DNA of 64,000 nt, from NCBI RefSeq assembly GCF_028368995.1, contig NZ_JAQNDL010000001.1, forward strand, positions 4,000,001 to 4,064,000, in the 5' to 3' direction. The DNA is from Nannocystis bainbridge (GTDB taxonomy: Bacteria > Myxococcota_A > Polyangia > Nannocystales > Nannocystaceae). The notes under the pieces are model-generated. The model made no database searches. It was not told the DNA's origin and saw nothing but the letters and a program-made list of their open reading frames with translations. The first letter of the stretch is position 1. Every line of letters begins with the position of its first letter. Below, in pieces: positions 7,905 through 62,623 of the stretch. Both the position numbers and the translations under genes were made by a program.

Positions 7905-8849
7905 ATGTCCTTCAAGACCTGTCTCTTCGTCACCGCCCTGGCCCTGCCCGGGCTCCTCCTCGGCTGCGGCGACCCGGCCCCGGGGGGCACCACGGGCGGG
8001 ACCGACGACACGACCGACACCGGCTCGTCGAGCGGCCCCGGCACCAGCCTCACCGAGCCGACCACCACCGAATCGGTGATGACCTCGGACACCCTCACCA
8101 CGAACACCACGGACGTGCCCGATGGTTGTGGCGACGGCGTGAAGAACGGCGAAGAGAGCGACATCGACTGCGGCGGCACCTGCAGCCCGTGCGGCGGCGG
8201 CCTCGCCTGCGACGAGGACGTCGACTGCAGCTCGGACAACTGCGACGCCGGGACCTGCGTGGCGCTGCCCGCCAGCTGCATGCAGCTGCTCGACGCCAAG
8301 CCCGACCTGCCGAGCGGCACCTACCCGCTCGACCCTGACGGCGACGGCACCGCGGCCGATTTCTACTGCGACATGGACCCCGAGAGCCCCGGCTGGACGC
8401 AGGTGTTCGCGGCCGGCGGCGAGGGCACCTGGACCCCCGAGGTCGAGGGCGCCTGCGGCGACCTCGGCGCCATGATGGGCCCGTTCGGCATGGGCGACGT
8501 GCTCCTGCTCGCCACCACCGCCGCCGCCGTCCCGCACAAGCAGCTGCGCGTGGTCGCCGAGGCGGTCGTGATGGACTCGTGGGACGCCTTCAACGGCGAG
8601 CAGCTGCTCATCAAGCTCGACGACGTCGACATCTTCTCGCACCTGTGCGACTCGGCCTCGCCGTTCAGCTGCAACCAGGACGAGGACGCCTGCGGCAGCG
8701 GCGGCGTCGGCGACGGCGTGTTGCCGATCGCCACCGACCCGGCCACGCACGAGGGCGACGCCATCGCCCTCAGCTTCACCAGCAACCTCGACGAGCCCAT
8801 CGAAGACGAGTCGTGGGGCATCCGCGACGTCGCGGTGTTCGTCAAGTAG
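7905..8849 (+). CDS. Cys-rich lipoprotein with fibrinogen-like N-terminal motif
   Basis: LLGC lipobox, Thr linker, CGDGVKNGEESDIDCGG, SC..L...PSGTY.LDPDG...FYCDM...GWT. Confidence 0.65.
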   Translation: MSFKTCLFVTALALPGLLLGCGDPAPGGTTGGTDDTTDTGSSSGPGTSLTEPTTTESVMTSDTLTTNTTDVPDGCGDGVKNGEESDIDCGGTCSPCGGGLACDEDVDCSSDNCDAGTCVALPASCMQLLDAKPDLPSGTYPLDPDGDGTAADFYCDMDPESPGWTQVFAAGGEGTWTPEVEGACGDLGAMMGPFGMGDVLLLATTAAAVPHKQLRVVAEAVVMDSWDAFNGEQLLIKLDDVDIFSHLCDSASPFSCNQDEDACGSGGVGDGVLPIATDPATHEGDAIALSFTSNLDEPIEDESWGIRDVAVFVK

Positions 8850-8856
8850 CGCCCGC

Positions 8857-9939
8857 GTGACCCACTTTTTCTTCTGCGTCTGCCAGCTCGGCGCCGAGCC
8901 GGCCGTCAAGGTCGAGCTCGCCACGCTGCGCCCCGAGCTCCGCTTCGCCTACAGCCGGCCGGGCCTCGTCACCTTCAAGTCGCCCGGGCCGGTGGCCCCC
9001 GACGCCCCGCTGCCGGCCGTGTTCGTGCGCGCCTTCGGGGCCTCGCTCGGCCCGGCCGACAGCCCCGAGCAGGTGTTCACAATGCTCTCCGGGACATGTC
9101 CCGAAGGCCAGCCAATTCGCCTGCACGTGTGGGAGCGCGACGTCACCCGCCCCGGCGAGGAGCCGCCCGGCTTCCGCTACGGCCCGCGCGCCGCCGAGGT
9201 CCGCGCCGCGCTGACGGCCGCCTGGCCCGCGCAGCGCCATCCGCTGCTCGCGGGCGAGGTCGCCGAGCCTGGCGATCGCGTGCTCGACGTCATCGTCGCC
9301 GAGGGCGAGCCGTGGTGGATCGGCCATCACGTCCACGGCCCCGGCCACTCCCCGTTGCCCGGCGGGCGGATCGCCGTCGACATGCCGCCCGAGGCCCCGT
9401 CGCGCGCCTATCGCAAGCTCGAGGAGGCGCTGATCTGGTCCGGCGCCCCGGTGCGCGCCGGCGACGTCGCGGTCGAGATCGGCAGCGCCCCCGGCGGCGC
9501 CAGTTATGCCCTGCTGCGCCGCGGCGTCACCGTCTACGGCATCGACCCGGCGCTGATGGACCCGGTCGTGCTCGATTACCGCGGCGAAAGTCCGGCCGAC
9601 AATCGCTTCATTCACTTGCACCGCCCGATGAGCCTGGTCCAGCGCGCCGACCTCCCGGCCGCGCTGCACTGGGTGCTGATGGACGTGAACCTCGCCCCGC
9701 AGGTCGCCCTCATCACCGCCCGCCGCCTCGCCGCCCGGCCTCGCCACGCGCTTCACGGTGTTCTCCTCACTCTCAAGCTCGACGACTGGCGCGCCGTCCG
9801 GCACGTGCCCCGCCTGCTCGCCTCGATCAGCGCCATGGGCATGGAAGAGGTCAAGGCCACGCAGCTGCCCAGCAATCGCATGGAGCTGTTCGTCTGCGGC
9901 CTGACCCGCGCCGGCCTCCAGCGCCTCACCGGCCACTGA
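8857..9939 (+). CDS. RlmM/FtsJ-like SAM-dependent RNA methyltransferase
   Basis: APSRAYRKLEEAL, EIGSAPGG, GIDPA, LMDVN, LTLKL. Confidence 0.75.
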   Translation: MTHFFFCVCQLGAEPAVKVELATLRPELRFAYSRPGLVTFKSPGPVAPDAPLPAVFVRAFGASLGPADSPEQVFTMLSGTCPEGQPIRLHVWERDVTRPGEEPPGFRYGPRAAEVRAALTAAWPAQRHPLLAGEVAEPGDRVLDVIVAEGEPWWIGHHVHGPGHSPLPGGRIAVDMPPEAPSRAYRKLEEALIWSGAPVRAGDVAVEIGSAPGGASYALLRRGVTVYGIDPALMDPVVLDYRGESPADNRFIHLHRPMSLVQRADLPAALHWVLMDVNLAPQVALITARRLAARPRHALHGVLLTLKLDDWRAVRHVPRLLASISAMGMEEVKATQLPSNRMELFVCGLTRAGLQRLTGH

Positions 9940-9981
9940 CTTCGTCGCTTCGTCGGCGCGGGTGTGGTGTATTTTCCGCGC

Positions 9982-11127
9982 ATGCGCAGCCACGTTCGTC
10001 ACCTCGTCGTCGCCCTCGCGCTCGCGGGCGGCGCCGGTTGTACGGCCTCCGCCTCGTTGAACGTATCGACCCCGCCGACCCGCGGCTCGGCCGAGCCGTC
10101 GATCGCCCGCGCCTCGGTGACGATCGTGCGCCACGGCGACAAGCTCGACTACGAGAACGGCGAGATCGAGTTCGAGACCGGCTCGGCCGCGCTGGTGGGC
10201 GGCGGCACCGACGACATCCTCGACCGCTACGCCGCCGTCCTCAAGCAGTACCCCGAGCTGAAGATCCGGGTCGAGGGTCACACCGACAGCCGCGGCAGCA
10301 CCAAGTCCAACCAGGAGCTGTCGGATCTGCGCGCCAAGTCGATCCGCAACGCGCTGATCCGCCGCGGCGTCGCCAGCGAGCGCCTCGACGCCCGCGGCTT
10401 CGGCGAGAGCCAGCCCGAGCGCGTCGAGCCTGCCGGCTGTCGCAACCGCTCGGAGGACACCGTCGCCGACGACAAGCTCGCCGAGTGCAAGGAGATCTGG
10501 ACCGCCAACCGCCGCGCCGGCTTCATCGTCACCGAGGGCGGGGGCAGCTTGCCCGCCGACGGCACGGTCGCCGACGCGCCCGAGCCCGCACCTGTCCCTT
10601 CGGGCAGCCCCGGCAAGAAGCACCCCGACTGGGCCCTGCGCATGTTCGGCGGCTACTCGCTGAGGTACCCGGGCGACGGCTTCCACGGCGGCCACTTCGG
10701 CATCGGCGTGCACGCCTCGCAGCGGTTCGGCGCGCGCCAGCGCGGCTACATCGGCGGCGGCCCGCGCCTGCACTACCGCGGCGTCCGTGGCCGCGAGACC
10801 GGCCTCGCCGGCTACGACTTCGCCACCCACTACATCGGCCCCGAGGGCAACCTCCTGGTCGGCGGCGGCAACGACCGCATCGTCGGCCTGTTCTCGTTCC
10901 GCCTCGGCCTCGGCGTCGGCATCACCCACGGCTCGGCCAGCGGCGTCGGCTTCGCCGGCTGGATGCTCGGCGGCCCGATGGTGCTCGGCAAGATCAACGA
11001 GCGCTGGAGCCTCGGCGGTCACGCCGAGTTCGGCATGATCGGGGGCATCGGCGCGGTCGCGTTCGCCACCGAGATCGGCCTCAACGTCGCCTGGCACTTC
11101 GGCCGTGGCCGCCGCAAGGGCCTCTGA
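9982..11127 (+). CDS. OmpA-family protein (N-terminal OmpA_C-like domain, C-terminal beta-rich domain)
   Basis: IEFETGSA, RVEGHTD.RG...NQELS..RA, GFGE, NRR. Alternating beta-strand pattern at the C-terminus. Confidence 0.8.
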   Translation: MRSHVRHLVVALALAGGAGCTASASLNVSTPPTRGSAEPSIARASVTIVRHGDKLDYENGEIEFETGSAALVGGGTDDILDRYAAVLKQYPELKIRVEGHTDSRGSTKSNQELSDLRAKSIRNALIRRGVASERLDARGFGESQPERVEPAGCRNRSEDTVADDKLAECKEIWTANRRAGFIVTEGGGSLPADGTVADAPEPAPVPSGSPGKKHPDWALRMFGGYSLRYPGDGFHGGHFGIGVHASQRFGARQRGYIGGGPRLHYRGVRGRETGLAGYDFATHYIGPEGNLLVGGGNDRIVGLFSFRLGLGVGITHGSASGVGFAGWMLGGPMVLGKINERWSLGGHAEFGMIGGIGAVAFATEIGLNVAWHFGRGRRKGL

Positions 11128-16962: not shown

Positions 16963-17109
16963 CCAGGCCGGGGGCGAGCGGCGAGCCGGACACGCGAGCA
17001 CGCGCGCACGCTACCACCCCCTCGCGGCCTCATCCACCCCCAGCGACGTCGCGCGGGGACGACAGCCTGTCGACCCCGCGCGAACCTCCTCTGTTGCGTC
17101 AGAGCGGCT

Positions 17110-17490: not shown

Positions 17491-17883
17491 CACTCGCACT
17501 CCTTCTCGTCTGCTGCGAGGGCGGCGCGGCGCCCTCGGGAATGTCACGAGTCTGGGCACGACCCGAATCACGCGCCGCCGCGCTCGGGTCTCGCGGATCA
17601 GGCTCAGGCCGCCGCGGACGCGTCGTGCTCCGGCTCCGGCGGCCCCGCGGCCCCGATTGTGCTCACCGTCACAGTATAGACATTCGCCGCGGGCGGCCCG
17701 CAAGAGCCCGTCACTCTATCCAATCATCGCGTCCCCCGCCTGGCCCGCACGAGCGCTGCGACCTGCACGGGCCGCTGCTGTGCGCCCCTACCCGCCGCCG
17801 TCCGTCGACAGCCGGGCTCTTGCGGGCGAGCGGCAGTCCCATGATTGTGCCGTCCGCCCGTCACGACCTGTCCCTGCGGACAG

Positions 17884-24591: not shown

Positions 24592-24633
24592 TGTCTCTCG
24601 CGACATGTCCTCCATGACATGTCGTGATGGACA
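24592..24633. repeat. Tandem array of three perfect TGTC-N6-GACA 14-mers
   Basis: TGTCTCTCGCGACA TGTCCTCCATGACA TGTCGTGATGGACA, between convergent stop codons. Confidence 0.9.
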
Positions 24634-28760: not shown

Positions 28761-28910
28761 GCGCGCCCGTCCGCGCGCCTCGCAAGCACCTGTCTCTCGG
28801 GACATCTCATCGCCACGCCGATCCTCCGCCGGGGGACAGGCGCGCGCGGGCGCGCCCGTCCGCCCCTCGAATCAACCTGTCTCTCGGGACATCTCATTGC
28901 CACGCCCATC
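28761..28910. repeat. Imperfect direct repeat pair (period ~87 bp), each copy containing TGTCTCTCGGGACA
   Basis: CCTGTCTCTCGGGACATCTCATYGCCACGCC at ~28789 and ~28876, in a divergent intergenic region. Confidence 0.8.
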
Positions 28911-28945: not shown

Positions 28946-30622
28946 GTGCGCCGCCGCAGCTTCCTCGCCGGGACCGCCGCGCTCGCGTGCGGTCGGCCGC
29001 GCAGGGTCGAGCCTGGCTTCGGCGAGACGCGCGACACCGTCGCCGCCCTGCTCGACGCCTGGCGCGAGAAGATGCCCGTCGTCGGCCTCAGCATCGCCCT
29101 CGTCGATCGCGGCGAGCTCGCCTGGGCCACCGGCTTCGGCATGGCCGACCGCGAGGCGCGGCAGCCTGCCACCGCCGACACCGTCTACGCGATCGGCTCG
29201 CTCACCAAGATCTACACCGCCCTCGCGGCCGTGCGCGCCGCGCAGGCCGGCCGGCTCGACCTCGAGGCCCCGCTGCAGCGCCACCTCCCGCAGTTGCGCG
29301 CGCTCGGCAGCGACGCCATCCGCTTGCGTCAGCTCCTCTGTCACCGCTCCGGCCTCGTCTCCGACTGGCACCGCGGCAGCCTCGGCGCGCGCCCGCCCGA
29401 CTGGCGACGCGTCGCCGACGAGGTCGCCGAGGAGCCCCTGCTCGCCGCGCCCGACAGCTGGTACGCCTACTCCAACGTCGGCTACACCCTCATGGGACAT
29501 GTCCTCGACGACATGTCCGATAAACCATATCAAGAGCACGTCCTCGACGTCGCCCGCCTCGCGCTCGGCGGCTCCGGCCTGGGCTTCGACCCGCCCCCCG
29601 GCATGGCCGCCAGCTACTGCGCCGGCCAGCGCGAGCACGAGCCGCGCCTGCGCCTGCAGCCCGCCGCCGGCATGTTCGGCAGCGTCCTCGATCTCGTCCC
29701 GCTGCTGCGCTGGCTGCTCGCCGGTGAGGGCGCCGCCGCGGCCATGCTCACCCCGCAGTCGGCCGGCCCGCTCGATTTCGACGAGCGCTGGGGCCTCGGC
29801 CTCGCCCTGCAGCACGTCGGCCTCGCCCACGCCGGCCGCGTCGCCTGGCACACCGGCCGCACCTTCGGCCACCGCGCCGCCCTGTTCGCCCTGCCCGATC
29901 GCGGCCTCGGCGTCGCCGTGCTCGCCAACTTCCGCGAGGCCGGCGGCGTCGAGGACCTCGCCGCCTTCGCCCTCCAGACCGCCCTGCTCGAGCGCGACGG
30001 CCTCGACCTCCCGCCCAGCGCCGGCGACGCCGAAGCCCGCCCGCGCGCCCCCTTCGACCCCGCCGCGCTGCAGGCCCACGTCGGCCGCTACGCCCACGAG
30101 TTCGACGTCGTCCGCCTCGCCGTCGAGCGCGGCGGCCTGGTCTCGCGCGCCGAGATCGGCAAGACCGCGCTGATCCCCGCGGCGGGCGGCGGCTTCCACA
30201 GCGCCGACAACCCCGACGCTCACGTCACCATCGCCGAGCGCGCCGGCCACCACGTCGTCACCAGCACCGTGCGCGGCGTCGAGACCCGGATCGGTGTGCG
30301 CTGTCCCTTCGAACATGTCCCCGAGGACTGGCTCCGCCGCGTCGGCCGCTACACCGTCGACGCCGGCCCCGACGAGGTCGTCGCCTTCAAGGCCGCCCAC
30401 CTCACCGCCGTCGAGGGCGGCCTCGAGCTCCGCCTCGAGCTGCCGCAAGCGTTCGCCACCAGCTCGACCCTGGCCCGCTACGCGCTCATCGTCACCGGCC
30501 CACACGAGGCCCGGACCTTCGGTGTCGGCCGCGGCAAGGGCCAGCGCGTCGCGGCCTTCGACGGCCCCGAGGGCCCCGAGCTGGCATGGGCCGGCTACCG
30601 CCTGCTCCGCAGCGACGCCTGA
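28946..30622 (+). CDS. Serine hydrolase, beta-lactamase/AmpC-like family, probable Tat lipoprotein
   Basis: RRRSFL...LAC signal, SLTK (SxxK), YSN, HTG motifs. Confidence 0.85.
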   Translation: MRRRSFLAGTAALACGRPRRVEPGFGETRDTVAALLDAWREKMPVVGLSIALVDRGELAWATGFGMADREARQPATADTVYAIGSLTKIYTALAAVRAAQAGRLDLEAPLQRHLPQLRALGSDAIRLRQLLCHRSGLVSDWHRGSLGARPPDWRRVADEVAEEPLLAAPDSWYAYSNVGYTLMGHVLDDMSDKPYQEHVLDVARLALGGSGLGFDPPPGMAASYCAGQREHEPRLRLQPAAGMFGSVLDLVPLLRWLLAGEGAAAAMLTPQSAGPLDFDERWGLGLALQHVGLAHAGRVAWHTGRTFGHRAALFALPDRGLGVAVLANFREAGGVEDLAAFALQTALLERDGLDLPPSAGDAEARPRAPFDPAALQAHVGRYAHEFDVVRLAVERGGLVSRAEIGKTALIPAAGGGFHSADNPDAHVTIAERAGHHVVTSTVRGVETRIGVRCPFEHVPEDWLRRVGRYTVDAGPDEVVAFKAAHLTAVEGGLELRLELPQAFATSSTLARYALIVTGPHEARTFGVGRGKGQRVAAFDGPEGPELAWAGYRLLRSDA

Positions 30623-30853
30623 GGCCGGGCGGCAGAGTCAGTGTCTCGGAATCACATGTCCCAAGGGACAGCCAATCTCGAAGCGCAAGCGCGTCGCTCG
30701 ACAGGTCGGCGCCGCTCCTCGGTCCAGCGCTGGGCCACGCGCGGCGGTTCCGCAGCCCGGCTACCGCCTGCTCCGTAGCGACGCCTGACGCCGGGCGGCA
30801 GCGCCCGACGCCTCCGAATCACATGTCCCGAGTGACAGCCAACCTCGAAGCGC
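30591..30853. repeat. Imperfect duplication (~166-bp period) of the gene 3' end plus downstream DNA
   Basis: CCGGCTACCGCCTGCTCCG.AGCGACGCCTGA at 30591 and 30757. GAATCACATGTCCC..G.GACAGCCAA in both copies. Confidence 0.85.
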
Positions 30854-30899
30854 GAGAACCTCTCTCGCGCCAGCAATCAACCTGTCTCAAGAAACAGCC

Positions 30900-34788: not shown

Positions 34789-34830
34789 TGTCCCCAAGGA
34801 CATGCCCCTCCGCGCATGTCCTTTCAGCCA
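34789..34830. repeat. Tandem array of three TGTC-N6-GACA-like 14-mers
   Basis: TGTCCCCAAGGACA TGCCCCTCCGCGCA TGTCCTTTCAGCCA, between convergent stop codons. Confidence 0.8.
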
Positions 34831-36694: not shown

Positions 36695-37654
36695 ATGCCG
36701 CCGCGCCTCGACTACTCCCGGCAATGCGCCGAGCTCGAGAAGATCGCACGCCTCGAGCCGCGCCCCGCCGCCCCCTCCGACCCTGCTGCGGGTCTCGCCG
36801 CCCCCTCGCCCGCCGCCACCTGCCTCGTGTGCGACGCCGGCCCCGCCCGCCCGTGCGACCGCTGCGGCGGCGTCGCCTACTGCGGCGACGAGCACCGCCG
36901 GCTCGACCTGCGCTGGCACGCCCCGGTCTGCCCCGCGCTGCGGGCGATCGCCGACGACCTCGCCTTCTTCGCCGCCCATGCGCGCCCCTGGCTCGAAGCC
37001 CGGCTCCTCGCCCGCGCCGGTCGGACCGCCGCCCTTCCCACCTCCTGGGACGCCTGGCTCGGCCCCGACCTCGCGCCCGTCGAGCGCCGTTGCCTCAGCG
37101 ACCTCGCCACCCGGCCGCTGACGCTCGCTCACCTCCTCGGCTTGCTCTCCGAACATGTCCCGAAGGACATCTCGAATCCCACCGCGATCCACGTCATCGC
37201 CGCCGCCCAGCGCGAGCGCGACGTCTCGCCGGCGCTGTGGCGCGAGCTCGAGCGCCTGCACCCCGACCGTCGCTTCGCCATCACTCTCATCGGCCCCGAG
37301 CTCGCGCCCGGCGACCTCGGACCGGGCGTGCGTGCCGTGACGGCCCTCTATCGGCGCGACCTGTGGCCCGCGCTCGGGCGCCCCGACCTCGTCATCGGTT
37401 ACGACTGCGGCCTCCTCCTCTATCCCACGTGGAAGCCGACCATGCACGACCTGCGCGGCTCGGGCGTCCCGTTCGCGCTCACCAGCTATCGCGCCTGGGA
37501 GGCCGCCGGCGAGGCCCGCCTGTTGCGGGCGATCGGCGCCGAACCGCTGCTCGCCCCCACGCCCAACCCGTTCGCCTCGCTCTCGGCCCGCCGCTCGTCC
37601 ACCCTCGCCAACGACCTCGCCCACGACAACGCATTCATGAGCGCCTGGCGCTGA
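36695..37654 (+). CDS. MYND zinc-finger + MSS51 C-terminal-like domain protein
   Basis: CLVC...CDRC..VAYCGDEH...WH..VC, then RPLTL, IHVIAA, LIGPE, PDLVIGYDCGL, FALTSY..WE, NPFAS. Confidence 0.7.
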   Translation: MPPRLDYSRQCAELEKIARLEPRPAAPSDPAAGLAAPSPAATCLVCDAGPARPCDRCGGVAYCGDEHRRLDLRWHAPVCPALRAIADDLAFFAAHARPWLEARLLARAGRTAALPTSWDAWLGPDLAPVERRCLSDLATRPLTLAHLLGLLSEHVPKDISNPTAIHVIAAAQRERDVSPALWRELERLHPDRRFAITLIGPELAPGDLGPGVRAVTALYRRDLWPALGRPDLVIGYDCGLLLYPTWKPTMHDLRGSGVPFALTSYRAWEAAGEARLLRAIGAEPLLAPTPNPFASLSARRSSTLANDLAHDNAFMSAWR

Positions 37655-44759: not shown

Positions 44760-47185
44760 TGGCAGGCCTCGCAAGATTCGGGGTTTTCCAGCGAACACGC
44801 GACCGCGGCTCGCGGCGCGATCGGCTCGGCGGTCGGGGTCGAATCGACCGTCGCCTTGGCGATCCGCGTCGCCGGGCGCGAGCGCAGGTAGTATGTCGTC
44901 TTCAGCCCGCGCTTCCACGCGTAGAAGTACATGCTCGAGAGTTGACCGATGCTCGGGCTCTCGATGAACAGGTTCAGCGACTGGCTCTGATCGATGTATG
45001 CCCCGCGCTCGGCCGCCATGTCGACCAGCGAGCGCATCGGCAGCTCCCACGCCGTGCGGTACACCAGCTTCAGCGCCTCCGGCAGCCCCTCCAGCTGCTG
45101 CACCGAGCCCTCGGCCAGCTTGAGCTGGTTGCGCGTCGCCTCGGTCCACAGCCCGAGTCGCTTGAGCGTCGCCACCAGGTAGCGGTTGACCTGCAGGAAG
45201 TCGCCCGACAGCGTCTCGCGCTTGAAGAGGTTCGACACCTGCGGCTCGATGCACTCGTAGCAGCCGGCGATCGCCGCGATCGTCGCCGTCGGCGCGATCG
45301 CCACCAGCAGCGAGTTGCGCAGCCCGTGCTCGCGGATGTCCGCCCGCAGCCTGTCCCATCGTTCAGGTTCGCTCGGCGTCACGCCCCAGGCGTCGAACTG
45401 CAGCTCGCCGCGGGCCACCCGGGTCTCCTCGTACGTCGGGTGCCGCCCGCGCTCCCGCGCAAGCGCGCACGAGGCCGTCAGCGCGTGGAAGTACACCGCC
45501 TCGGAGATGTCCCGCGACAGCTGCCGCGCCGCCCCCCCGTCGAACGACAGCCCGAGCTGGAAGAACACGTCCTGCAGCCCCATGAGCCCCAGCCCGACCG
45601 GCCGCCACTGCACGTTCGAGTCGCGCGCGCCCGGCAGCGAGTAGTAGTTGAGGTCGATCACCCGGTCGAGCTGCCGCACCGCCAGCGCGACCGTCTGCGC
45701 CAGCTTCTCGAAGTCGAAGGCGACCTGTCCGTCGGGACATGTATTGACGTGGCGCCCGAGGTTGATCGAGCCGAGGTTGCACACCGCCACCTCGTCGCCG
45801 GCCGTGACCTCGACGATCTCCGTGCAAAGGTTCGAGAGGTGCACCACCCGCCCCGGCGCTCCGGTCTGGTTGCAGGTGGTGTTGCAGCGGTCCTTGAAGG
45901 TCATCCAGCCGTTGCCGGTCTGCGCCAGCGTCCGCATCATGCGCGCGTAGAGGTCGCGCGCCGGGACGGTCCGCACGGCCAGGCCGGCCGCCTCGTACTC
46001 GACGTAGCGGGCCTCGAACGCCTCGCCGTACAGGTCGGGCAGGTCCTTGACCGTCTTGGGGTCGAACAGGCTCCACGCCGCGTCGGCCTCGACCCGGCGC
46101 ATGAACAGGTCGGGCACCCAGTTGGCGAGGTTGAGGTTGTGCGTGCGGCTGGCCTCGTCGCCGGTGTTGTCGCGCAGCTCGAGGAACGCCTCGATGTCGG
46201 CGTGCCACGACTCGAGGTACACGCAGCAGGCGCCCTTGCGCTTGCCGCCCTGGTTGACCGCCGCCACCGACGCGTCGAGCGTCTTGAGCCACGGCACGAT
46301 CCCGCACGAGATCCCGTTCGTCACCGTGATCAACGAGCCGCGCGAGCGCACCCGGTGGAACGCCATGCCGATCCCGCCGGAGAACTTCGACAGCATCGCC
46401 ACGTCGTGGTAGCGCTGATAGATGTGCGACAGCTGATCGCGCGGCGAGTCGAGCAGGAAGCAGCTCGCCAGCTGCTCGTGCCGCGTGCCGCTGTTGAACA
46501 GCGTCGGCGAGCTCGGCAGGTACTCGAGCGCCGACAGCAGCGCGTACAGCTCGCGCGCCTCCGCCACGGACTCGGCCAGCGCGCACGCGATCCGCATGAA
46601 GAACTGCTGCGGCGTCTCGATCACCAGCCGCGTCTGCGGGTGGCGCAGCAGGTAGCGGTCGTAGACGGTGCGCAGGCCGAAGTACTCGAACTCGAGGTCG
46701 CGCGAGCGATCGATCGCCGCGTCGAGCTCCTCCGCGTGGGCGCCCACGAACGCCTGCAGGCGCTCGTGGATCAGGTTCAGCGCGCGCCCGTGCGCGACCG
46801 ACTGCGAGAAGCTGCGGACCCCGGACAGTTCGACCTCGGCCTCGACATAAGTGGAAAGCAGCCGCGCCGCCAGCCGCGAGTACTGCGGCTCCTCGGCGAT
46901 CAGCCCCGCGGCGGTCTGGATCGACAGCAAGTCGAGCTCTTGCGTGGTCGCGCCGTCGTAGAGCCCGCTGATCGTGCGCGTCGCCACCCGCACCGCGTCG
47001 ACGGCGTCGAGCCCGGCGCAGCAGCGGTCGACTGCCTGCACGATCTTGTGGATGTCGACCGGCTCGAGCGCGCCGCTGCGCTTCTTCACCCGCATGCTGG
47101 TCTGAAAGCGCGTGCTGACCGAAAGGTCAGGTCGGGTCGGCTCGCCCGCCAGCGCCGCCTCGCTCGTCGTCGTGTCCCTGTCCAT
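44756..47185 (-). CDS. nrdA: Ribonucleoside-diphosphate reductase alpha subunit with ATP cone
   Basis: VKKRSG ATP cone, SPTLFN, SCFL, NQGG.RKG, SNLCTEI, CNLGS, APTAT, KTTYYLR, C-terminal CEACQ. Confidence 0.96.
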   Translation of the reverse strand: MDRDTTTSEAALAGEPTRPDLSVSTRFQTSMRVKKRSGALEPVDIHKIVQAVDRCCAGLDAVDAVRVATRTISGLYDGATTQELDLLSIQTAAGLIAEEPQYSRLAARLLSTYVEAEVELSGVRSFSQSVAHGRALNLIHERLQAFVGAHAEELDAAIDRSRDLEFEYFGLRTVYDRYLLRHPQTRLVIETPQQFFMRIACALAESVAEARELYALLSALEYLPSSPTLFNSGTRHEQLASCFLLDSPRDQLSHIYQRYHDVAMLSKFSGGIGMAFHRVRSRGSLITVTNGISCGIVPWLKTLDASVAAVNQGGKRKGACCVYLESWHADIEAFLELRDNTGDEASRTHNLNLANWVPDLFMRRVEADAAWSLFDPKTVKDLPDLYGEAFEARYVEYEAAGLAVRTVPARDLYARMMRTLAQTGNGWMTFKDRCNTTCNQTGAPGRVVHLSNLCTEIVEVTAGDEVAVCNLGSINLGRHVNTCPDGQVAFDFEKLAQTVALAVRQLDRVIDLNYYSLPGARDSNVQWRPVGLGLMGLQDVFFQLGLSFDGGAARQLSRDISEAVYFHALTASCALARERGRHPTYEETRVARGELQFDAWGVTPSEPERWDRLRADIREHGLRNSLLVAIAPTATIAAIAGCYECIEPQVSNLFKRETLSGDFLQVNRYLVATLKRLGLWTEATRNQLKLAEGSVQQLEGLPEALKLVYRTAWELPMRSLVDMAAERGAYIDQSQSLNLFIESPSIGQLSSMYFYAWKRGLKTTYYLRSRPATRIAKATVDSTPTAEPIAPRAAVACSLENPESCEACQ

Positions 47186-47639: not shown

Positions 47640-47696
47640 ACCTGCGCATACGCACAGCGCTCTCCACCGTGCTCTAGATGTCCCAAGAGACAGGTA

Positions 47697-51735: not shown

Positions 51736-51783
51736 CGCGCATGTCCTTTCCGTCATGTCCCTTTGAACATGTCCATGAATTCA
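51728..51783. repeat. Tandem array of four TGTC-N6-GACA-like 14-mers
   Basis: (GGACA) TGCCCTGACGCGCA TGTCCTTTCCGTCA TGTCCCTTTGAACA TGTCCATGAATTCA, at a convergent junction. Confidence 0.82.
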
Positions 51784-51793
51784 CCGGCCCGCC

Positions 51794-52744
51794 TCACGGC
51801 GCCACCGTCGCCAGCAGCGCCGGGTCGTCCGTCATGATCCCGTCGACCCCACGCGCGACCAGCTCGACCATGCGGCTCTCCTGGTTGACCGTCCACGGGT
51901 GCACCTTCATGCCCAGCCCGTGCGCGAACGTCACCAGCTCGGCGCTCGCCAGGTCCCACGGCGCGTGCACGAACTGCGCCGGCGCCACGTAGTCCGGGCT
52001 GCCGACGTTCAGGTGCAGGTCGAGCATCTCCGGCGTGCTGAGCGACGTGAACACCATCGGCGCCGCCGCGCGCACCGCCTGGATCGTCTCGAGCTCGGTC
52101 GCCGCGATCACCACCCGCTCCAGCGCCCCGTGCTCCGCGAGCGCCGACAGCAGCCCCTCCACGATCGGCGGATCGTTCTGCTTGATCTCGATCAAGCAGT
52201 ACGACTCCGGGAATTTTTCGAGGATCTCCTCCAGCGTCGGGATAACGATCCCCGCCCCGCGGTACGGGAACGTCTGCCCCCCGTCGGTCGTGAAGCGATA
52301 GCCCGCGTCGAGCGCCCGTAGCTGCGCCAGCGTCTGCGCCTTGATCGGCCCTGTCCCGTCGGTCGTGCGGTCGACCGTCCCGTCGTGCATCGCCACGATC
52401 ACCCCGTCGCTGCTCGCGTGCACATCGAACTCGAGCACGTCCGCCCCGACCGCCAGCGCGTGCTCGAACGCCAGCAGCGTCTCCTCCGGCCGCAGCGACG
52501 CCCCCCCGCGATGCGCGATGTTCAGAAATTTGTCCGACAGCAACAGGTTGCCGACCGGCTCGCCCGTCGTGCTGCTCGAGCTCGTCGGCACCTCGCCCGT
52601 GCTCGTCGTGCTCGCCGTGCCCGCCGTGCCCGTCGTGGACCCCGTCGAGCCCGTCCCACTCGTACTACCTGTCTCTCCGGACATATCGGTCGAACCACAG
52701 CCGATCCCGGCGATCACGAGGACTGTCCCGAGCGCTCGCAGCAT
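51794..52744 (-). CDS. Glycerophosphodiester phosphodiesterase lipoprotein
   Basis: GIGC lipobox, IAHRGG, PEETL.AF, EFDVH, MHDGTVDRTT, IEIK, WTVN, GIMTD. Confidence 0.9.
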   Translation of the reverse strand: MLRALGTVLVIAGIGCGSTDMSGETGSTSGTGSTGSTTGTAGTASTTSTGEVPTSSSSTTGEPVGNLLLSDKFLNIAHRGGASLRPEETLLAFEHALAVGADVLEFDVHASSDGVIVAMHDGTVDRTTDGTGPIKAQTLAQLRALDAGYRFTTDGGQTFPYRGAGIVIPTLEEILEKFPESYCLIEIKQNDPPIVEGLLSALAEHGALERVVIAATELETIQAVRAAAPMVFTSLSTPEMLDLHLNVGSPDYVAPAQFVHAPWDLASAELVTFAHGLGMKVHPWTVNQESRMVELVARGVDGIMTDDPALLATVAP

Positions 52745-52810: not shown

Positions 52811-53713
52811 TCAGCCGGCGCGCAGCGCCGCCGAGCGCTCCGCGAACGCCCGCACGTGCTGCAAGATCGATCGCAGCTTCGGCAGCCCTGCCTGGGCCGC
52901 GGGCACCACCACGTGCAGCCCGCGCGAGCGACCGACCAGCTCCGGCAGCACCGGCACCAGCACCCCGTCGGGCACGCCCGGGTCCGGCAGCAGCGCATCG
53001 GGCAAGAAGCCGATCCCCAGGCCCGCGAGCACCATCTGGCGCAGGCAATGCACATCGGCCGAGATCAGCGACGGCTCGACCTCGAACGACTCGCCGGTCA
53101 ACGTCGGCAGCACCCGGGGGTCCTCGCCTGGCGGCGCCCATGCCAGCACCTCGTGGCGAGTCAGCTCCTCGAGTGATTTCGGCGTCCCGCGGCGCCCCAC
53201 GTACTCCGTCGTCGCCACCAGCCACTCGCGCAGGCGCCACACCTCATGCGACAGCCACGGCCCCGCCGGCCCTGTCGGTCCGAAATGGACCAGCAGATCG
53301 ACGTCTTCCAGCGCGCTCGCCACCGGATCCTCGCTGAAGCGCAGCTGCAGCGACAGCCGCGGGAACGCCGAGCGCAGCGCCGCGAACAGCGGCGTCAACG
53401 CGTGCGGCGGCAGCCCCATCGGCAGCAGCGCTCGCAGCACCCCCACCGGCTCGCGCCCGATCTCCCGCACCGAAGCCACCAGCGCGCTCGCCTCTTGCAG
53501 CACGTGGCGGCCCCTCGCTGCCAGCACCGCCCCCGCCTCCGTCACCACCACCCCGCGGGCGCTGCGCTCGAGCAGCGGCACCCCGGCGCGGGCCTCGAGC
53601 GCCTCGACGCGGCGCCGCAGCGTCGCGCGGGCCATGTTGAGCTGGGTCGCCGCGGCCAGGAACGAGCCGGTCTCGACCACGCCGACGAAGGCCCTGAACT
53701 CCTCGAGATCCAT
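52811..53713 (-). CDS. LysR-family regulator
   Basis: FVGVVETGSF.AAA..L...ATL.RRV..LE...GVPLLER HTH plus substrate-binding domain. Confidence 0.9.
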   Translation of the reverse strand: MDLEEFRAFVGVVETGSFLAAATQLNMARATLRRRVEALEARAGVPLLERSARGVVVTEAGAVLAARGRHVLQEASALVASVREIGREPVGVLRALLPMGLPPHALTPLFAALRSAFPRLSLQLRFSEDPVASALEDVDLLVHFGPTGPAGPWLSHEVWRLREWLVATTEYVGRRGTPKSLEELTRHEVLAWAPPGEDPRVLPTLTGESFEVEPSLISADVHCLRQMVLAGLGIGFLPDALLPDPGVPDGVLVPVLPELVGRSRGLHVVVPAAQAGLPKLRSILQHVRAFAERSAALRAG

Positions 53714-53934
53714 CCCGACCGCGAGCCTACCCGAGTTCTCCTGGCCTCGCGTCGGCCCGGCAGCGGCTGCTCGGGGCGAACGCGCGCAATCGCCCCGACG
53801 AACGACGTACCGCTCGCAGCATGCGCGCTACATGTCCCAAGAGACATCCCCACTCCCGCCGCGCTCGTCCGCGCTCGCCGGGCGATCGCACGCAGTGGCA
53901 CCGGCCTTGTCGGCGGCATACCCTCAGCGTCCTC

Positions 53935-59900: not shown

Positions 59901-60192
59901 CACCCACTACTCACACGACCTCGCCACCCAGCTCGCCCACCAGTACGGCCAGATCAAGGTGCTGCGCGCGTCGACCCAGACGCCGCTGCCCGCGACCTAC
60001 GTCAAGGTCTACGCCCGCCAGCACGGGGGCAACGTCGCGTTCTTCAAGGACGGCTACACCGACATGCGCGGCCGCTTCGACTACGCGACGCTCTCGACGG
60101 ATGACCTCGACCGCGTCGAGCAGTTCGCAATCCTGGTAGTCAGCGACGAGGCCGGCGCGACGGTGCTCGAGGCCGCGCCGCCGCCGCGGTGA
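53935..60192 (+). CDS. Giant 2085-aa protein of unknown function (helical N-terminus, macroglobulin-like beta modules)
   Basis: Uninterrupted ORF with strong coding bias. ALSDDRAAALAGLLPGT, YSKYACHELH, HLEYAPL, DIELLFSRQPF, YVKVY...FFKDGYTD.RGRFDY. Confidence 0.8.
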   Translation: MDLEHLEALALSDDRAAALAGLLPGTPEHDYWRGVHSQHHGRLDEVDAILSGWKKRHGRTDDFHARLARRQLLLRSGLDLGKHADALRFEAHVRLDDEAEAVAAAHRYPTRLDPALIDQDALVDEARRRGSELGYLTDWALPDLVDRDLDATERRNLLQRLTRTNFPGLVALVAADLGEKSSHSFGSLPVHARLTRAQLDELAALRPELRKHPQFVDAVLVRLRPPTHIDWRTDLEARAAYLAELWAFVAGLPAAFNALKAQVLYHQLDLDRRRGVLDRERFLRYLALPRKVAYAPAERLRHVPSDQQVAPGGHAAQSAGLESIGDDEPLVREYLELLLLQEDGDAFAEYLRADWLAEQLATARLLAGAPEPERWAALLGPARLAALRDRVDLELTLRNPARFAADAPVALEVEVKNVPRLVVKTYRIDAVAHFLARRAEVDTTIDLDGLVASDEQVFLGDAPAIQRVRRRIDLAGCGRPGTYVIELIGGGKSSRALIRKGGLRHTVRVGVAGPTIRVLDDLGHPLPDARIWLAGREYAPRDDGSITIPFSTAPTRATMLLVHGDIAQAEALQHPAEQYHFHAGIHLERESLVPGKQARALLRPMLTVAGWPATVALIDDPIVEIAVTDNAGTTSTRSLPVVLRDDAETLVELVVPEDAAQLTLTARGQVRVASTQKTADLLDSASAEVGRIHRTEYTEAVHLASGAEGHVLHLLGKTGEPRAGRAIALSFKHVAVTFELSTTLETDARGRIELGHLPGIERITASLPTSESQHFALWPELDAARTIHAVAGQQVLLPRPPALGDGDSSLVELRGGAPTRDLTARVSLDERVLVVAGDLPAGEYLLQSRGVADVRIVVVPADTPIVDGWAAAGPTSIELSPPLPLITGLRAAADQLELELDGAGPNTRVHLLATRFRPDRVLPRSLRRAPRPPLAGAVAPVLSHYVSGRDIGDEYRYVLDRRNHARRPGMLLEKPGLLLNPWAVRTTSTGVQHAKGGGAYAASPARPAAAPATAAPRTQAAFGGEQVGFVALDFLPAPAVVLANLRPDESGRLRVPLADLGPAQSVRIVVVDPALTSVVDLGLPATDLRPRDLRLRFALVHDQHFTELRGVDGAPAGATLVVEDLRSGKLELVDTVARAHQVLLSLGAPDTLREFAFVTQWHALDDATRRARYSKYACHELHLFLHFRDPEFFARVVRPYLEHKRRKTFVDHWLLGADLSGYLEPWAFGRLNALERALLARRLPDARASIVRLLGDAVDLIPPDPERDDRLVDTLLGASALEGSPLAAAAPATMELAEDSFGSEGAPVKEHKKMARRSRREIDAMDRDEEEAGDGFSAVGGGGPPPPPPGAPAAAKAMRAGSRGGGGDFDDTTITADLRERRRSAPLYRGADKTQEWAESDWWHIRATNATSFLIAVHRYWRDFARHDPATGPFLSPHLDECAGDFASALCALAVLDLPFVAGAHAVTVEDTRLSLTCASPALAARTRIAAVEAAEDTRAALLVGQSYVRSDDRWEWDGAEQREKVVDGEFLVGVVYRCQVVVTNPTSRHRRIAALLQIPRGAMPVASGFYTRTFNLQLHGYGTQLLEYAFYFPAAGQFTHFPAHVSEHRGERVELVGAGPPAVLAVVVTPTRVDAGSWAHVSQHGTTDEVLGFLAGANLGRVELERIAWRMRDRDAFTRVLALLTDRRTYNDRLWAYALAHADRPRVAEWLRHQDAFVRKAGPALVGGVIEIDAAERNWYEHLEYAPLVGARAHRLGSKRQVLNDALAAQYNNFLELVAHRPAAGPDDLLAAAHYLFSLDRTDDALAALARVDRGQLATRLQYDYLAAYAACCSGDLATARALAEPWRAHPVDRWRSRFAALLAMLDEAEGRGPAVAVDDDSREQRMDELAARQPALAVTAEQGRIILQHHNVTTCQLRFYRMDIELLFSRQPFVQGDVERFSWIEPGATLEVQLPAGESRTTVEIPQGMRGANLVIDAVAAGLRRSITHYSHDLATQLAHQYGQIKVLRASTQTPLPATYVKVYARQHGGNVAFFKDGYTDMRGRFDYATLSTDDLDRVEQFAILVVSDEAGATVLEAAPPPR

Positions 60193-61598: not shown

Positions 61599-61868
61599 TC
61601 AACGCGACACGCAGCGCCGCGCGAACACCTCGACGCTGCCCAGCGAATCACCGGTGGCGACGGCCGCGAACGGGTGCCAGCCGGCGGGCAACGCGTCGAC
61701 CGAGGCCGGGTCGTACTGCGTCCAGGCGGAGACCTCCCATTGGCCACAGTCGCCCTCCTCGGCCCACGCGACCGCGGGGCTGCTGTCGAACGGACAGCCG
61801 ACGACGAACACCAGCCCGGCCGCGAAGCCGAGCGCCAGCATCATTCCCGAACGCATGTCGAAGCTCAT
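61599..61868 (-). CDS. Small hypothetical secreted/lipoprotein
   Basis: SD GGAGG, hydrophobic signal ending VVGC, CGQWEV...LPAGWHPF...RRC. Confidence 0.55.
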   Translation of the reverse strand: MSFDMRSGMMLALGFAAGLVFVVGCPFDSSPAVAWAEEGDCGQWEVSAWTQYDPASVDALPAGWHPFAAVATGDSLGSVEVFARRCVSR

Positions 61869-62023
61869 CCCAGGACCTCCATCCGGCGAACCCGCCGCTC
61901 CACGTTCAAGCGGCGCCCGGCCCGAATTATTCCTGTCGCCGCGAACAACGATCCGCAGAGGTCCGCGCCGGTTCGCTGCGCGGCGTCGGTCGGCCGCGCG
62001 CCGCGTGTTACCGTGCTGCGGTC

Positions 62024-62572
62024 ATGAGAGCTCCGCACGACACGCTGACCTCCGAGCGCCTGGTGTTGCGTCGTTACACCGCCGACGACCTCGACCTGCT
62101 GGTGCGCCTGCACACCGATATTCGGGTCATGCGCTTCGCCGGCGGCCTCCAGGACCGGGCCCGCAGCGAGGCGATGATGCGCGAGCGGATCCTCGCCTAC
62201 TACGACCAGCACCCCGGCCTCGGCATCTGGCTGACGAGCGAGCGGGCCACGGGCGCCCCGGTCGGCATGCACCTGCTGAACCACGTCCGCGACGACACGG
62301 TCATCCAGGTCGGCTACCTGCTCTACCCCGAGTACTGGGGCCGCGGCTACGCCACCGAGATGGCCGCGCGCCTGCTGCGATACGGCTTCGCCGAGCTCGG
62401 GCTGCCGCAGATCTCCGCGATCACCGACCTGCCGCACGTCGACTCCCAGCGCGTCCTTTTAAAAGTTGGCCTGCACCGCGACGGCGAGCGCCACTTCCCC
62501 GCGTATGGCGAGGAGCCCCTGGCGTTCTTCACCCGCGACGCCGCGGCCTGGCTCGCCGAGAACCCGACCTGA
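62024..62572 (+). CDS. GNAT N-acetyltransferase (RimJ/RimL-like)
   Basis: SERLVLRR, VGYLL.PEYWGRGYATE, SQRVL.KVG. Confidence 0.9.
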   Translation: MRAPHDTLTSERLVLRRYTADDLDLLVRLHTDIRVMRFAGGLQDRARSEAMMRERILAYYDQHPGLGIWLTSERATGAPVGMHLLNHVRDDTVIQVGYLLYPEYWGRGYATEMAARLLRYGFAELGLPQISAITDLPHVDSQRVLLKVGLHRDGERHFPAYGEEPLAFFTRDAAAWLAENPT

Positions 62573-62623
62573 CATGTCCCATCGAGCCTTCGAGCGGCCC
62601 ACTTGCGCTTCGCCCAGCAGCAC

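Follow-up and report, generated by a model that had tools for sequence, protein, structure and literature searches.

TGTC-N6-GACA, a hyper-abundant palindrome of Nannocystis bainbridge and candidate genome-wide recognition mark

What is a 14-bp palindrome, TGTC-N6-GACA, doing in so many places along a 64-kb stretch of the Nannocystis bainbridge genome (the window, 64,000 nucleotides in full), and does anything read it? A preliminary description of the window listed 15 perfect and 12 one-mismatch copies and proposed a binding site for a dimeric chromosome-organising protein. All 15 perfect copies lie where they had been placed, and the 12 imperfect ones are likewise genuine, out of a total of 30 one-mismatch matches that the window contains; the half-array reported at 62571 reduces to one GACATGTC octamer. 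Shuffled versions of the window contain 0.74 perfect copies on average (sd 0.80, maximum 3), and none of 100 reaches 15. Perfect and one-mismatch copies together number 45, as compared to 19.7 ± 5.3 after shuffling, and again none of 100 shuffles reaches that count. The sites discussed below are listed without strand; signs in brackets give the strand of open reading frames (ORFs).

17869..17882, perfect site, 2 nt past the stop of ORF 17884-18417 (-)
24592..24633, three abutting perfect units with a 14-bp period, filling the convergent gap between ORFs 24239-24583 (+) and 24636-25043 (-)
28791..28804, perfect site between divergent genes (gap 28749-28946), in the first of two copies of an 87-bp unit
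28878..28891, perfect site with a spacer identical to that at 28791, second copy of the 87-bp unit
29500..29513, perfect site with GACATGTC on both flanks, within ORF 28946-30622 (+)
30302..30329, two abutting one-mismatch units toward the 3' end of ORF 28946-30622
30657..30670, perfect site between convergent genes (gap 30622-30900)
30824..30837, perfect site in the same gap, its flanks paralogous to those of 30657 (a unit of ~167 bp)
30883..30896, one-mismatch unit after the 30824 site, same gap
34789..34830, perfect site (34789-34802) and one-mismatch unit (34817-34830) that together fill the convergent gap 34771-34832
37156..37169, perfect site within ORF 36695-37654 (+); perfect in one of five congeners, near-perfect in the rest
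45726..45739, perfect site within ORF 44756-47185 (-)
47679..47692, perfect site just past the stop of ORF 47697-48560 (-)
51742..51769, pair of abutting one-mismatch units between convergent genes (gap 51735-51794)
52670..52683, perfect site separating two same-strand ORFs, 51794-52591 (-) and 52811-53713 (-)
53833..53846, perfect site in the divergent gap ahead of a 2085-aa ORF, 53935-60192 (+)
62571..62578, isolated GACATGTC junction octamer that overlaps the stop codon of ORF 62024-62572

The site at 47679-47692 lies 78 nt upstream of a cobalamin riboswitch.

The signal is much stronger genome-wide than is visible in the window. The 11.05-Mb genome holds 3663 perfect copies with the six-base spacer (k=6), whereas each of the spacers k=0-5 and 7-19 yields 29-175; the 984 copies at k=20 are pairs of abutting units. 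The spacer count by which the preliminary description proposed to judge itself is thus specific for k=6, and the proposal survives it. Enrichment is 37-fold over N5/N7, and the motif ranks first among all 256 dyads of the form X4-N6-rcX4. Intergenic DNA alone contains 2333 copies, as compared to 12-35 for k=3-10. Each of the five contigs carries 272-410 sites per Mb with no regional pattern. These counts confirm a hyper-abundant palindrome, present in thousands of copies along the chromosome of this soil bacterium, both inside and between genes.

Second, the half-sites are conserved between species while the spacers drift. In 925,499 aligned bp shared with a second genome (G005, 88.7% identity), all eight core bases are kept at 93 of 127 genic sites but in only 27% of 493 composition-matched control windows (p 9e-27). 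Between genes, the full core is kept at 41 of 79 sites, with per-base identities of 0.82-0.92 (core), 0.65-0.71 (spacer) and 0.61-0.70 (outer flanks). Within the window, an array occupies the position of 24592-24633 in all five congeners compared; each unit position is perfect in one to four of them and near-perfect in the others, with unrelated spacers. The counterpart of the genic site 29500-29513 reads TGTC-N6-AACA in all five. Conservation does not distinguish selection from an ongoing drive, for example through biased uptake or biased repair. Only three genera of one family carry the motif: the extended form CATGTC-N6-GACATG occurs in all 15 genomes of genera g1, g2 and g4 (11-944 copies) and in 0-2 copies each in 31 genomes of 14 other genera.

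Placement relative to genes, as positioned by a crude in-house gene caller, is strongly uneven. Perfect copies lie inside genes in 36% of cases. In 5649 confident genes we count 1156 sites, whereas ten synonymous-codon shuffles give 78.9 ± 7.1 (maximum 92) and control spacers stay within about a factor of two of their own shuffles; at a depth of more than 100 nt, such genes still contain 1020 sites, as compared to 9-85 for k=3-10. Densities per kb are 2.84 in convergent gaps, 1.16 in tandem gaps, 0.43 in divergent gaps and 0.14 in coding DNA, and at least one site is found in 39%, 17% and 12% of convergent, tandem and divergent regions, respectively. As the preliminary description had held, the dyad is chromosome-wide and tied neither to promoters nor to one regulon. 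An operator for an ordinary transcription factor with a very large regulon is hardly credible on these figures, since divergent gaps are the poorest intergenic class and copies run to thousands, some of them genic. The 5-N4-5 geometry would suit it, being typical of helix-turn-helix dimers, as would the sister genera, where the extended form is limited to 11-102 copies and two of five loci examined in one genome (G013) lie between divergent genes.

Density peaks 5-20 nt past stop codons, at 4.7-5.2 per 1000 available positions, and falls to 1.2 at 200-400 nt. A 42-kb block of ribosomal-protein, rpoC, EF-Tu and EF-G genes has zero sites, a 44-kb site-free desert holds efflux, P-type ATPase and hydrogenase genes, and genes longer than 10 kb carry 0.025 sites per kb as compared to 0.12-0.21 in genes of 0.6-10 kb. 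Intervals between sites vary more than expected at random (CV 1.25 versus 1.08 ± 0.02), which means clumping and not even spacing.

A signal for DNA uptake or gene exchange, comparable to DUS/USS and spread by molecular drive through preferential uptake or recombination and not serving the adjacent gene, is possible though improbable. It would account for thousands of lineage-specific copies, genic and intergenic, over the whole chromosome, for multi-gene stretches without sites such as the 44-kb desert, for the paucity in very long genes and for the preference for positions just past genes, where Neisseria DUS are likewise commonest. The genome also encodes a ComM homologue (65% identity to a protein of G040) and a gene with a TfoX_N domain. 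However, the uptake sequences known so far are asymmetric words of 9-12 nt, a format unlike a dyad around a free spacer; the spacing is no more even than random; and the largest desert examined, the ribosomal-protein block, is core rather than foreign DNA. Adjacency of sites to comM and tfoX-like genes in sister genera was noticed post hoc, in two cases; in N. bainbridge that adjacency is absent, the sites there being located at the genes' 3' ends. HIP1, the cyanobacterial palindrome discussed below, has been linked to transformation in a recent uptake proposal (PMC13756078; bioRxiv 10.1101/2024.09.10.611283).

Third, we analyzed how the site itself is built. The fuller consensus is R-A-C-A/C-TGTC-C-Y-n-n-R-G-GACA-T/G-G-T. 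The YYNNRR spacer tendency seen in the window extends to the whole genome (C at spacer position 1 in 75%, C/T at position 2 in 77%, A/G at position 5 in 74% and G at position 6 in 72%). Conservation ends about four bases beyond the 14-mer on either side, and hence the copies are not pieces of a longer repeat; the lack of a long conserved body had been rightly described, and the sequence is not a mobile repeat. Half-site centres are ~9 bp apart. In arrays, neighbouring units share a GACA|TGTC junction at a period of 14 bp, and arrays gain and lose such units between species. G1 and C12 are the least replaceable positions, no covariation was found among spacer positions, and the logo oriented by transcription is mirror-symmetric. 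Watson-Crick-compensated double variants are not enriched above uncompensated ones (for instance TGCC-N6-GGCA, 295 versus 239 for the control), which indicates that base identity is read, not pairing.

These properties bear on a role in RNA, either as a bidirectional terminator or through hairpins that stabilise mRNA 3' ends, which we consider very unlikely. The peak past stop codons and the 39% occupancy of convergent gaps would be expected of it; 9% of intergenic sites extend by at least 5 bp as perfect palindromes, as compared to 2.3% of control dyads, and wobble-type variants show a secondary sense-strand bias of about two-fold. Against it stand the missing compensatory changes, the symmetry of the logo to transcription, more than 1000 genic copies and a polarity of imperfect copies that tracks replication first (see below). 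As single-stranded DNA, nine single intergenic and genic sites form weak hairpins (-1.4 to -6.2 kcal/mol), and the 24592-24633 array folds at -16.9 kcal/mol (z -7.1). No Rfam family falls on the sites, and none of six terminator-like predictions in positions 17000-36999 coincides with one, which speaks against a terminator.

A REP-like selfish hairpin, copied through single-stranded lagging-strand template by a transposase other than the known Y1 type, is quite unlikely. Palindromy, abundance past genes and between convergent genes, and the between-species variation of arrays by 14-bp units are in its favor, and the replication-strand polarity recalls IS200/IS605-type elements, which target the lagging-strand template (bioRxiv 10.1101/279083). 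However, a 14-bp insertion would break the frame at the 36% of copies that are genic, and these arise through codon choice; the sites have neither a conserved body nor a GTAG-type head, and orthologous sites are conserved in place. Y1_Tnp was not found in any of the 15 motif-bearing genomes searched but is present in 11 of 31 other genomes of the family, and a REP/RAYT system is accordingly rejected.

Finally, one-mismatch copies are polarised by replication strand. Taking the G-rich strand as the presumed leading strand by GC skew alone, intergenic variants on that strand number 626:249 for A11>G versus T2>C, 550:206 for T2>G versus A11>C, 283:125 for C3>T versus G10>A and 53:18 for C3>A versus G10>T, while controls at k=5, 7 and 9 are close to 1:1. 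The polarity tracks the replication strand, not transcription, is seen again in G005 and G001, and amounts to 47:20 in orthologous pairs of perfect and one-mismatch sites. It exceeds the neutral substitution bias measured here (polarised substitutions 0.7-1.9, transitions 0.8-1.3; flanking intergenic DNA G:C 1.32, T:A 1.00). The neutral bias of the N. bainbridge lineage runs partly in the same direction (up to 1.9, C>G versus G>C), so a purely mutational origin, amplified at sites, may hold. A purely double-stranded binding site would not predict the polarity: a protein that binds only double-stranded DNA is blind to which strand is G-rich, and an added single-strand or repair step is therefore needed.

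Another explanation follows Elhai's model for HIP, in which an orphan methyltransferase marks the dyad and very-short-patch-type repair converts near-sites into sites. Type I and some Type II enzymes recognise sequences of this format, bipartite dyads with a 6-nt gap; HsdS-type genes are present in N. bainbridge, and C3>T and A11>G are in strand-asymmetric excess, as deamination of a single-stranded template would produce. Transversions are, however, as polarised as transitions (T2>G and C3>A above), which deamination does not explain. Moreover, HsdS is sporadic in the family and was not found in G011, which nevertheless has 623 sites as compared to 98 for the reversed control. We therefore hold this explanation to be distinctly doubtful. 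HIP1 abundance has been reported to follow cognate methyltransferases (PMC4390886).

Based on these observations, we propose, with a probability of roughly 0.55, that TGTC-N6-GACA is a recognition sequence whose individual bases are read by a symmetric, sequence-specific factor, with reading or upkeep coupled to replication. The independence of the half-sites, the symmetry to transcription and the conservation between species fit a symmetric sequence-specific protein, and the polarity of imperfect copies argues that reading or upkeep is coupled to replication. We infer that the reader is (i) a protein, (ii) dimeric and (iii) linked to replication; most likely, one subunit of this putative DNA-binding dimer would contact each TGTCC half-site. 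Selection, or a selection-like drive, would create the sites and hold them in place in coding and non-coding DNA alike. They would accumulate where they are least harmful, past stop codons and between convergent genes, and be excluded from promoters and from the ribosomal-protein/RNA-polymerase superoperon. The coupling would probably run through the G-rich strand while it is transiently single-stranded, when the palindrome could fold back on it. A search for the binding protein in this genome found none: PadR, the only family nameable from the dyad geometry (site ATGT-N8-ACAT), was rejected because no PadR gene is present. By analogy with proposals for HIP1, our guess is that the role may be chromosome upkeep or the marking of resident DNA.

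Recognition by a symmetric protein, proposed as a dimeric one in the preliminary description, fits these features; the analogues named there do not. RacA ram, Noc NBS, matS, SlmA SBS and parS share with TGTC-N6-GACA a palindromic site and a dimeric chromosome-organising protein (putative here), but they number tens of sites, mostly in one chromosomal region. With 3663 perfect sites, clumped, 36% genic and on all five contigs without regional pattern, a parS/matS-type site is rejected. HIP1, Neisseria dRS3 and DUS, and REP elements are the closer analogues.

REP/REPIN elements are likewise short, palindromic, high-copy and found past genes and in convergent gaps (PMC3116915), and are linked to single-stranded lagging-strand template (bioRxiv 10.1101/279083); TGTC-N6-GACA differs in its genic copies, free spacer, lack of body and head, conservation in place and lack of RAYT (Y1_Tnp) in the 15 genomes searched. 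Neisseria DUS (GCCGTCTGAA, 1831-1910 copies; PMC3898611) resembles it in its thousands of lineage-specific, chromosome-wide copies in genes and gaps, but DUS and Haemophilus USS are asymmetric contiguous words. dRS3 (ATTCCC-N8-GGGAAT) is a 20-bp dispersed element with 646-725 copies per genome, which also has short terminal inverted repeats around a variable spacer and forms intergenic arrays; in NIME arrays it alternates with RS units of 30-160 bp, and it serves as an integration site for filamentous prophage (PMC3898611). TGTC-N6-GACA units instead abut directly, a third of copies are genic, and no phage link was found, the sole hint being one copy in G011 ~400 bp from an integrase gene.

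HIP1, the highly iterated palindrome GCGATCGC of cyanobacteria, is 15- to 300-fold over-represented, and its conservation between genomes indicates that it is maintained, not neutrally replenished (PMC5861425, PMC13756078). Nucleoid structure, methylation-linked repair and DNA uptake have been proposed as its function (PMC5861425, PMC13756078, PMC4390886). Both are short over-represented palindromes, conserved and lineage-wide, within and between genes. TGTC-N6-GACA differs in being bipartite, with 4+4 fixed bases (~9+9 with the weaker flanks) around a free spacer, in building arrays with a 14-bp period, in being ~20-fold denser in convergent gaps than in genes and in occurring in another phylum, restricted to three genera; to our knowledge, it has no cognate methyltransferase. 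Replication-strand polarity of imperfect copies is a further difference, as abstracts on HIP1 contain no description of it that we found. TGTC-N6-GACA thus looks like a mark recognised throughout the genome and comparable to cyanobacterial HIP1, itself a palindrome that still awaits explanation.

The 14-bp dyad TGTC-N6-GACA is a real, selected, lineage-specific and hyper-abundant interrupted palindrome. The window holds 15 perfect copies, exactly where the preliminary description had placed them, compared with 0.74 ± 0.80 in dinucleotide shuffles (maximum 3; 0 of 100 shuffles reach 15). The 12 one-mismatch copies it had claimed are all present among 30 such matches, giving a perfect plus one-mismatch total of 45 (19.7 ± 5.3 in shuffles), and a half-array claimed at 62571 is instead a single GACATGTC octamer lying on a stop codon. 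The proposed genome-wide count by spacer length singled out k = 6: the Nannocystis bainbridge assembly (11.05 Mb, 5 contigs, 71.5% G+C; window at C1:4000001–4064000) contains 3663 copies of TGTC-Nk-GACA at this spacer (a mean of 3.3 sites per 10 kb), where ~80–120 copies are expected, and 29–175 at k = 0–5 and 7–19. In intergenic DNA the corresponding numbers are 2333 and 12–35. When all 256 X4-N6-rcX4 dyads are ranked, TGTC comes first, 37-fold over N5/N7, and the second dyad reaches 13-fold on 40 copies.

Units are often directly adjacent, with a period of 14 bp, as shown by genome-wide counts of 984 at k = 20, 2237 for GACATGTC and 1305 for GACA-N14-TGTC. Each of the 11 further palindromic octamers with this base composition is rarer than GACATGTC (17–505), and 972 of its 2237 copies have no perfect partner on either side. 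Arrays of at least three units number 221, and whole convergent gaps are filled by arrays of up to 5–6 near-perfect units. The logo, R-A-C-A/C-TGTC-C-Y-n-n-R-G-GACA-T/G-G-T, comprises the 14-mer and ~4 weaker bases per side; outside these flanks it drops to background, and there is thus no longer repeat body.

Inside genes the DNA sequence itself is under pressure. After within-gene synonymous shuffling of 5649 confident genes (7.96 Mb), the codon-preserving control that had been called for, 78.9 ± 7.1 sites are expected (maximum 92) and 1156 are found; control spacers agree with their own synonymous shuffles to within ~2-fold. More than 100 nt inside confident genes there are 1020 sites, versus 9–85 for k = 3–10. 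Since a 14-bp unit could not be inserted in frame, the genic copies arose by substitution.

Conservation between species was evaluated by aligning 1.2 Mb of a congener, G005, to N. bainbridge (925,499 bp aligned, 88.7% identity). All eight core bases are kept at 93 of 127 genic sites, compared with 27% of 493 control windows having the same A/T–G/C pattern (p = 9e-27), and G005's own sites are fully kept at 93 of 120 genic and 41 of 64 intergenic positions. For N. bainbridge intergenic sites the figure is 41 of 79; intergenic control windows are kept at 44% and 40%, and because these windows sit in better-conserved DNA than the sites, the local comparison of core with flank is fairer, per-base identity being 0.82–0.92 in the core, 0.65–0.71 in the spacer and 0.61–0.70 in the outer flanks. 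All five congeners compared have an array at 24592–24633; spacers are unrelated, and each of its three positions is perfect in 1 to 4 of the five; in intergenic arrays, whole units are gained and lost between species.

The spacer shows no covariation beyond its marginals, and Watson–Crick-compensated double variants are not above uncompensated ones, with TGTT-N6-AACA (63 vs 28) as the sole exception. Among core bases, G1 and C12 are nearly irreplaceable and T2 and A11 the most tolerant, and a logo oriented by transcription is mirror-symmetric. Single-strand DNA folding of nine single sites is weak (−1.4 to −6.2 kcal/mol); folding is stronger for the genic site at 29500, which has full flanks (−8.3), and for the triple array (−16.9). 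None of six terminator-like matches in 17000–36999 lies on a site, and no Rfam family coincides with one. Together these results indicate that what is recognized is base identity in two independent half-sites. This is compatible with a symmetric protein and disfavors a structure-only element. An intrinsic terminator, with its G+C-rich stem and T run, does not fit the terminator-like matches in 17000–36999, the lack of compensatory change and the weak single-site folds.

Placement was analyzed with genes from our own simple codon-usage scorer (8073 genes, 84% coding), on whose calls every placement figure rests; 1328 of the 3663 sites (36%) fall in predicted genes. Per kb, convergent gaps hold 2.84 sites, same-strand gaps 1.16, divergent gaps 0.43 and coding DNA 0.14, and at least one perfect site is found in 39% of 1430 convergent, 17% of 4388 tandem and 12% of 1455 divergent gaps. 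Within tandem gaps, 806 sites are closer to the upstream stop and 346 to the downstream start, and normalized density is maximal 5–20 nt after stop codons. This position speaks for a role at the RNA level, which remains a rival; the mirror-symmetric logo and the Rfam result speak against it.

All five contigs carry sites at 272–410 per Mb, with 33–130 in each 250-kb bin. The suggested likeness to parS, NBS, matS or ram therefore fails on number and distribution, systems of that type having few sites in one chromosomal region. Gaps between sites are more clumped than under a class-preserving null (CV 1.25 vs 1.08 ± 0.02), which rules out even spacing or gap filling, and genic sites filling the gaps between intergenic ones were not seen. 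The 42-kb superoperon at C2:2100542–2143127 (loci L085–L087), with ribosomal-protein, rpoA, secY, EF-Tu (two copies), EF-G and rpoC genes, contains no perfect site at all; a further desert of 44 kb holds efflux, ATPase and hydrogenase genes, and genes longer than 10 kb are nearly without sites genome-wide (0.025 per kb). Several features of the window adjoin sites:

28760–28900, 87-bp unit, duplicated, with sites at 28791 and 28878 and identical spacers
30620–30900, ~167-bp unit, duplicated, with sites at 30657 and 30824 and similar flanks
44756–47185 (−), 809-aa ORF
47388–47601 (−), cobalamin riboswitch (RF00174, 109.5 bits) preceding the 809-aa ORF, with a perfect site 78 nt upstream of the riboswitch
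53935–60192 (+), 2085-aa ORF preceded by a perfect site and containing a single one-mismatch site (57855)

Intergenic one-mismatch copies are polarized relative to the locally G-rich strand, assigned from GC skew over ±50 kb, which on this skew would be the leading-strand sequence, that is, the lagging-strand template. On the G-rich strand the ratios are 626:249 for A11>G vs T2>C, 550:206 for T2>G vs A11>C, 283:125 for C3>T vs G10>A, 294:161 for A11>T vs T2>A, 53:18 for C3>A vs G10>T and 88:30 for C3>G vs G10>C; at control spacers k = 5, 7 and 9, counts are low and roughly even between strands. The polarity turns with the replication strand and not with transcription (14:123 where the sense strand is G-rich, 101:53 where it is not), with a secondary sense-strand effect of ~2-fold for the two transitions. 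Perfect sites are polarized alike in their flank pairs (e.g. G.G 495 vs C.C 132 at flank position f2) and in their spacers (CTCGGG 58 vs CCCGAG 14; CGAAGG 51 vs CCTTCG 8). Two further genomes repeat the polarity, G005 (78:45, 100:61, 41:22) and G001 (31:16, 31:17, 24:7), whereas their k = 7 controls are near 1:1; A11>T vs T2>A shows none in either (33:40 and 18:14, respectively). Where one ortholog is perfect and the other has one mismatch, the G-rich strand carries G or T as its variant base in 47 cases and C or A in 20. For neutral substitutions, polarized over 233,409 positions of a three-way alignment, the rate ratio between strands is 0.7–1.9 (transitions 0.8–1.3), and intergenic DNA 9–40 nt from sites has G:C of 1.32 and T:A of 1.00.

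The favored variants leave G.T, G.A, G.G or T.T appositions on the G-rich strand and the disfavored ones C.A, T.C, C.C or A.A, an order that resembles the ranking of DNA mismatch stability. The polarity could reflect (i) selection for fold-back on the single-stranded template or (ii) a strand-asymmetric mutation process amplified at sites; these two are not separated by the data, and either points to single-stranded DNA at the fork. GC skew changes sign in contig C3 at ~1.5 Mb, positive before and negative after, marking a candidate origin or terminus; the given strand is C-rich nearly throughout in C1, C2 and C5 and G-rich in C4.

The family-wide comparison that had been proposed was made with the extended form CATGTC-N6-GACATG in 46 genomes, among which kin are not independent. 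Copy numbers rise above 0–2 in three genera, in five of five genomes each: 33–944 in g1, 28–54 in g2 and 11–102 in g4. The 31 genomes of 14 other genera carry 0–2 copies each, as does every genome for a reversed control pattern, and 12 genomes from other families of the class have no copy of a 20-mer form. Counts of the 14-mer against the reversed control are 623 vs 98 and 422 vs 18 in G011 and G013, from sister genera, and 84 vs 18, 102 vs 44 and 48 vs 23 in three further genera; there, spacers appear codon-driven. We assume that g1, g2 and g4 may be one clade, for which reason phylogenetic profiling for the reader was judged underpowered. One protein chosen for placing the genome proved too widely conserved, its best named relatives being in a Kofleriaceae MAG (83%) and Labilithrix (75–76%).

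Conserved site–gene pairs in sister genera were rejected as a route to the binding protein, identical spacers of different genera lying in unrelated gene contexts; two small ORFs adjoining sites there are not related and match no Pfam family. A screen of N. bainbridge genes with a site upstream returned 618, of which 203 encode at most 260 aa, too many for use. Individual loci were as follows:

G040:C50:158914–164931 (L084, genus g4), extended site 117 bp upstream of a ComM-like (Mg-chelatase family) gene
G040:C42:20708–26725 (L078, same genome), extended site ~300 bp beyond a TfoX_N-domain gene
G011:C8:13738–19755 (L079), site beside a Ser/Thr kinase gene and ~400 bp upstream of one for a tyrosine integrase (PF00589)
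G011:C8:36997–43014 (L080), region partly duplicated with L079, same site and spacer; no integrase ORF called in the ORF screen
N. bainbridge C1:4516431–4535487 and C2:3027637–3032708, near contig ends, five matches (95% identity) to a 1.76-kb G005 segment; the neighboring 6 kb align in either orientation, and these repeats probably caused the assembly breaks

An uptake signal remains a rival. N. bainbridge has a ComM homologue and a TfoX_N-domain gene; the adjacencies fail in this genome, sites lying instead at the 3′ ends of both genes.

Based on these observations, we propose, with a probability of roughly 55%, that the palindrome is the site of a symmetric sequence-specific protein linked to replication, the reader protein being hypothetical. 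A bolder version, which we consider rather unlikely, is that the palindrome would be a replication-coupled genome mark. While the lagging-strand template is transiently single-stranded, the palindrome would form a small fold-back there, and the sequence-specific factor reading it would be no relative of the known HUH/Y1 hairpin enzymes. Selection for such reading would have written thousands of copies into the genes and gaps of a whole clade, with only G-containing mispairs tolerated on the strand read. If true, chromosome-wide cis elements would gain a new class, distinct from a transposon, an uptake signal or a nucleoid-protein site.

Hyper-abundant short palindromes such as HIP1 have been unexplained for three decades and, to our knowledge, almost all such work concerns one motif in one phylum. 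The present motif, interrupted and from another phylum, would provide a second, independent system with different handles: (i) copy number graded over three genera, from tens of extended copies to ~1000, (ii) clearly selected half-sites with a free spacer, which tells "sequence read" from "structure formed", and (iii) a measurable polarity relative to the replication strand, which points to a step at the replication fork.

Literature searches on Nannocystis palindromic repeats and myxobacterial REP, made outside subscription journals, found no description of such a motif, the Nannocystis papers being judged by title or the opening of the abstract. REP palindromes are conserved over 20–40 nt, imperfect, and carry a GTAG-type head, whereas here only the 14-mer and its weak flanks are conserved and the spacer is free; REP/REPIN copies are extragenic, unlike the 36% of sites in predicted genes. 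The Y1 HUH transposase (PF01797) of REP/REPIN–RAYT systems has no match in N. bainbridge (90.5% complete by marker genes) or in any of 15 genomes of g1, g2 and g4, with matches in 11 of 31 other family genomes, and REP/RAYT is rejected accordingly. A transposase of unknown type remains a rival, favored by the gain and loss of whole units in arrays and disfavored by the origin of genic copies by substitution. The geometry fits a PadR-family operator, ATGT-N8-ACAT, which is rejected on 0 matches to PF03551 in N. bainbridge (E ≤ 0.001), the control being positive in 14 of 14 named genomes.

Like HIP-type palindromes, the motif is many-fold over expectation both within and between genes and is kept between genomes beyond neutral expectation (73% of genic sites vs 27% of controls). 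HIP-type motifs are contiguous octamers with cognate orphan methyltransferases, whereas the present motif is interrupted. HIP-type motifs are also periodic along the chromosome (10–90 kb); for the present motif the analysis covered the dispersion of gaps (CV 1.25 vs 1.08). A methylation/repair origin remains a rival; HsdS (PF01420), the only methyltransferase-system profile run, is sporadic in the family and not found in G011, and a Type I specificity subunit is therefore rejected as the reader. Neisseria dRS3, as described in PMC3898611, shares its form with the present motif, with hundreds of dispersed copies in which short terminal inverted repeats enclose a variable spacer. In dRS3/NIME, units alternate with RS units of 30–160 bp and a prophage integrates at the element, whereas here units abut at a 14-bp period without RS-like conserved bodies. 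The palindrome is closest in kind to HIP1 and closest in form to Neisseria dRS3.
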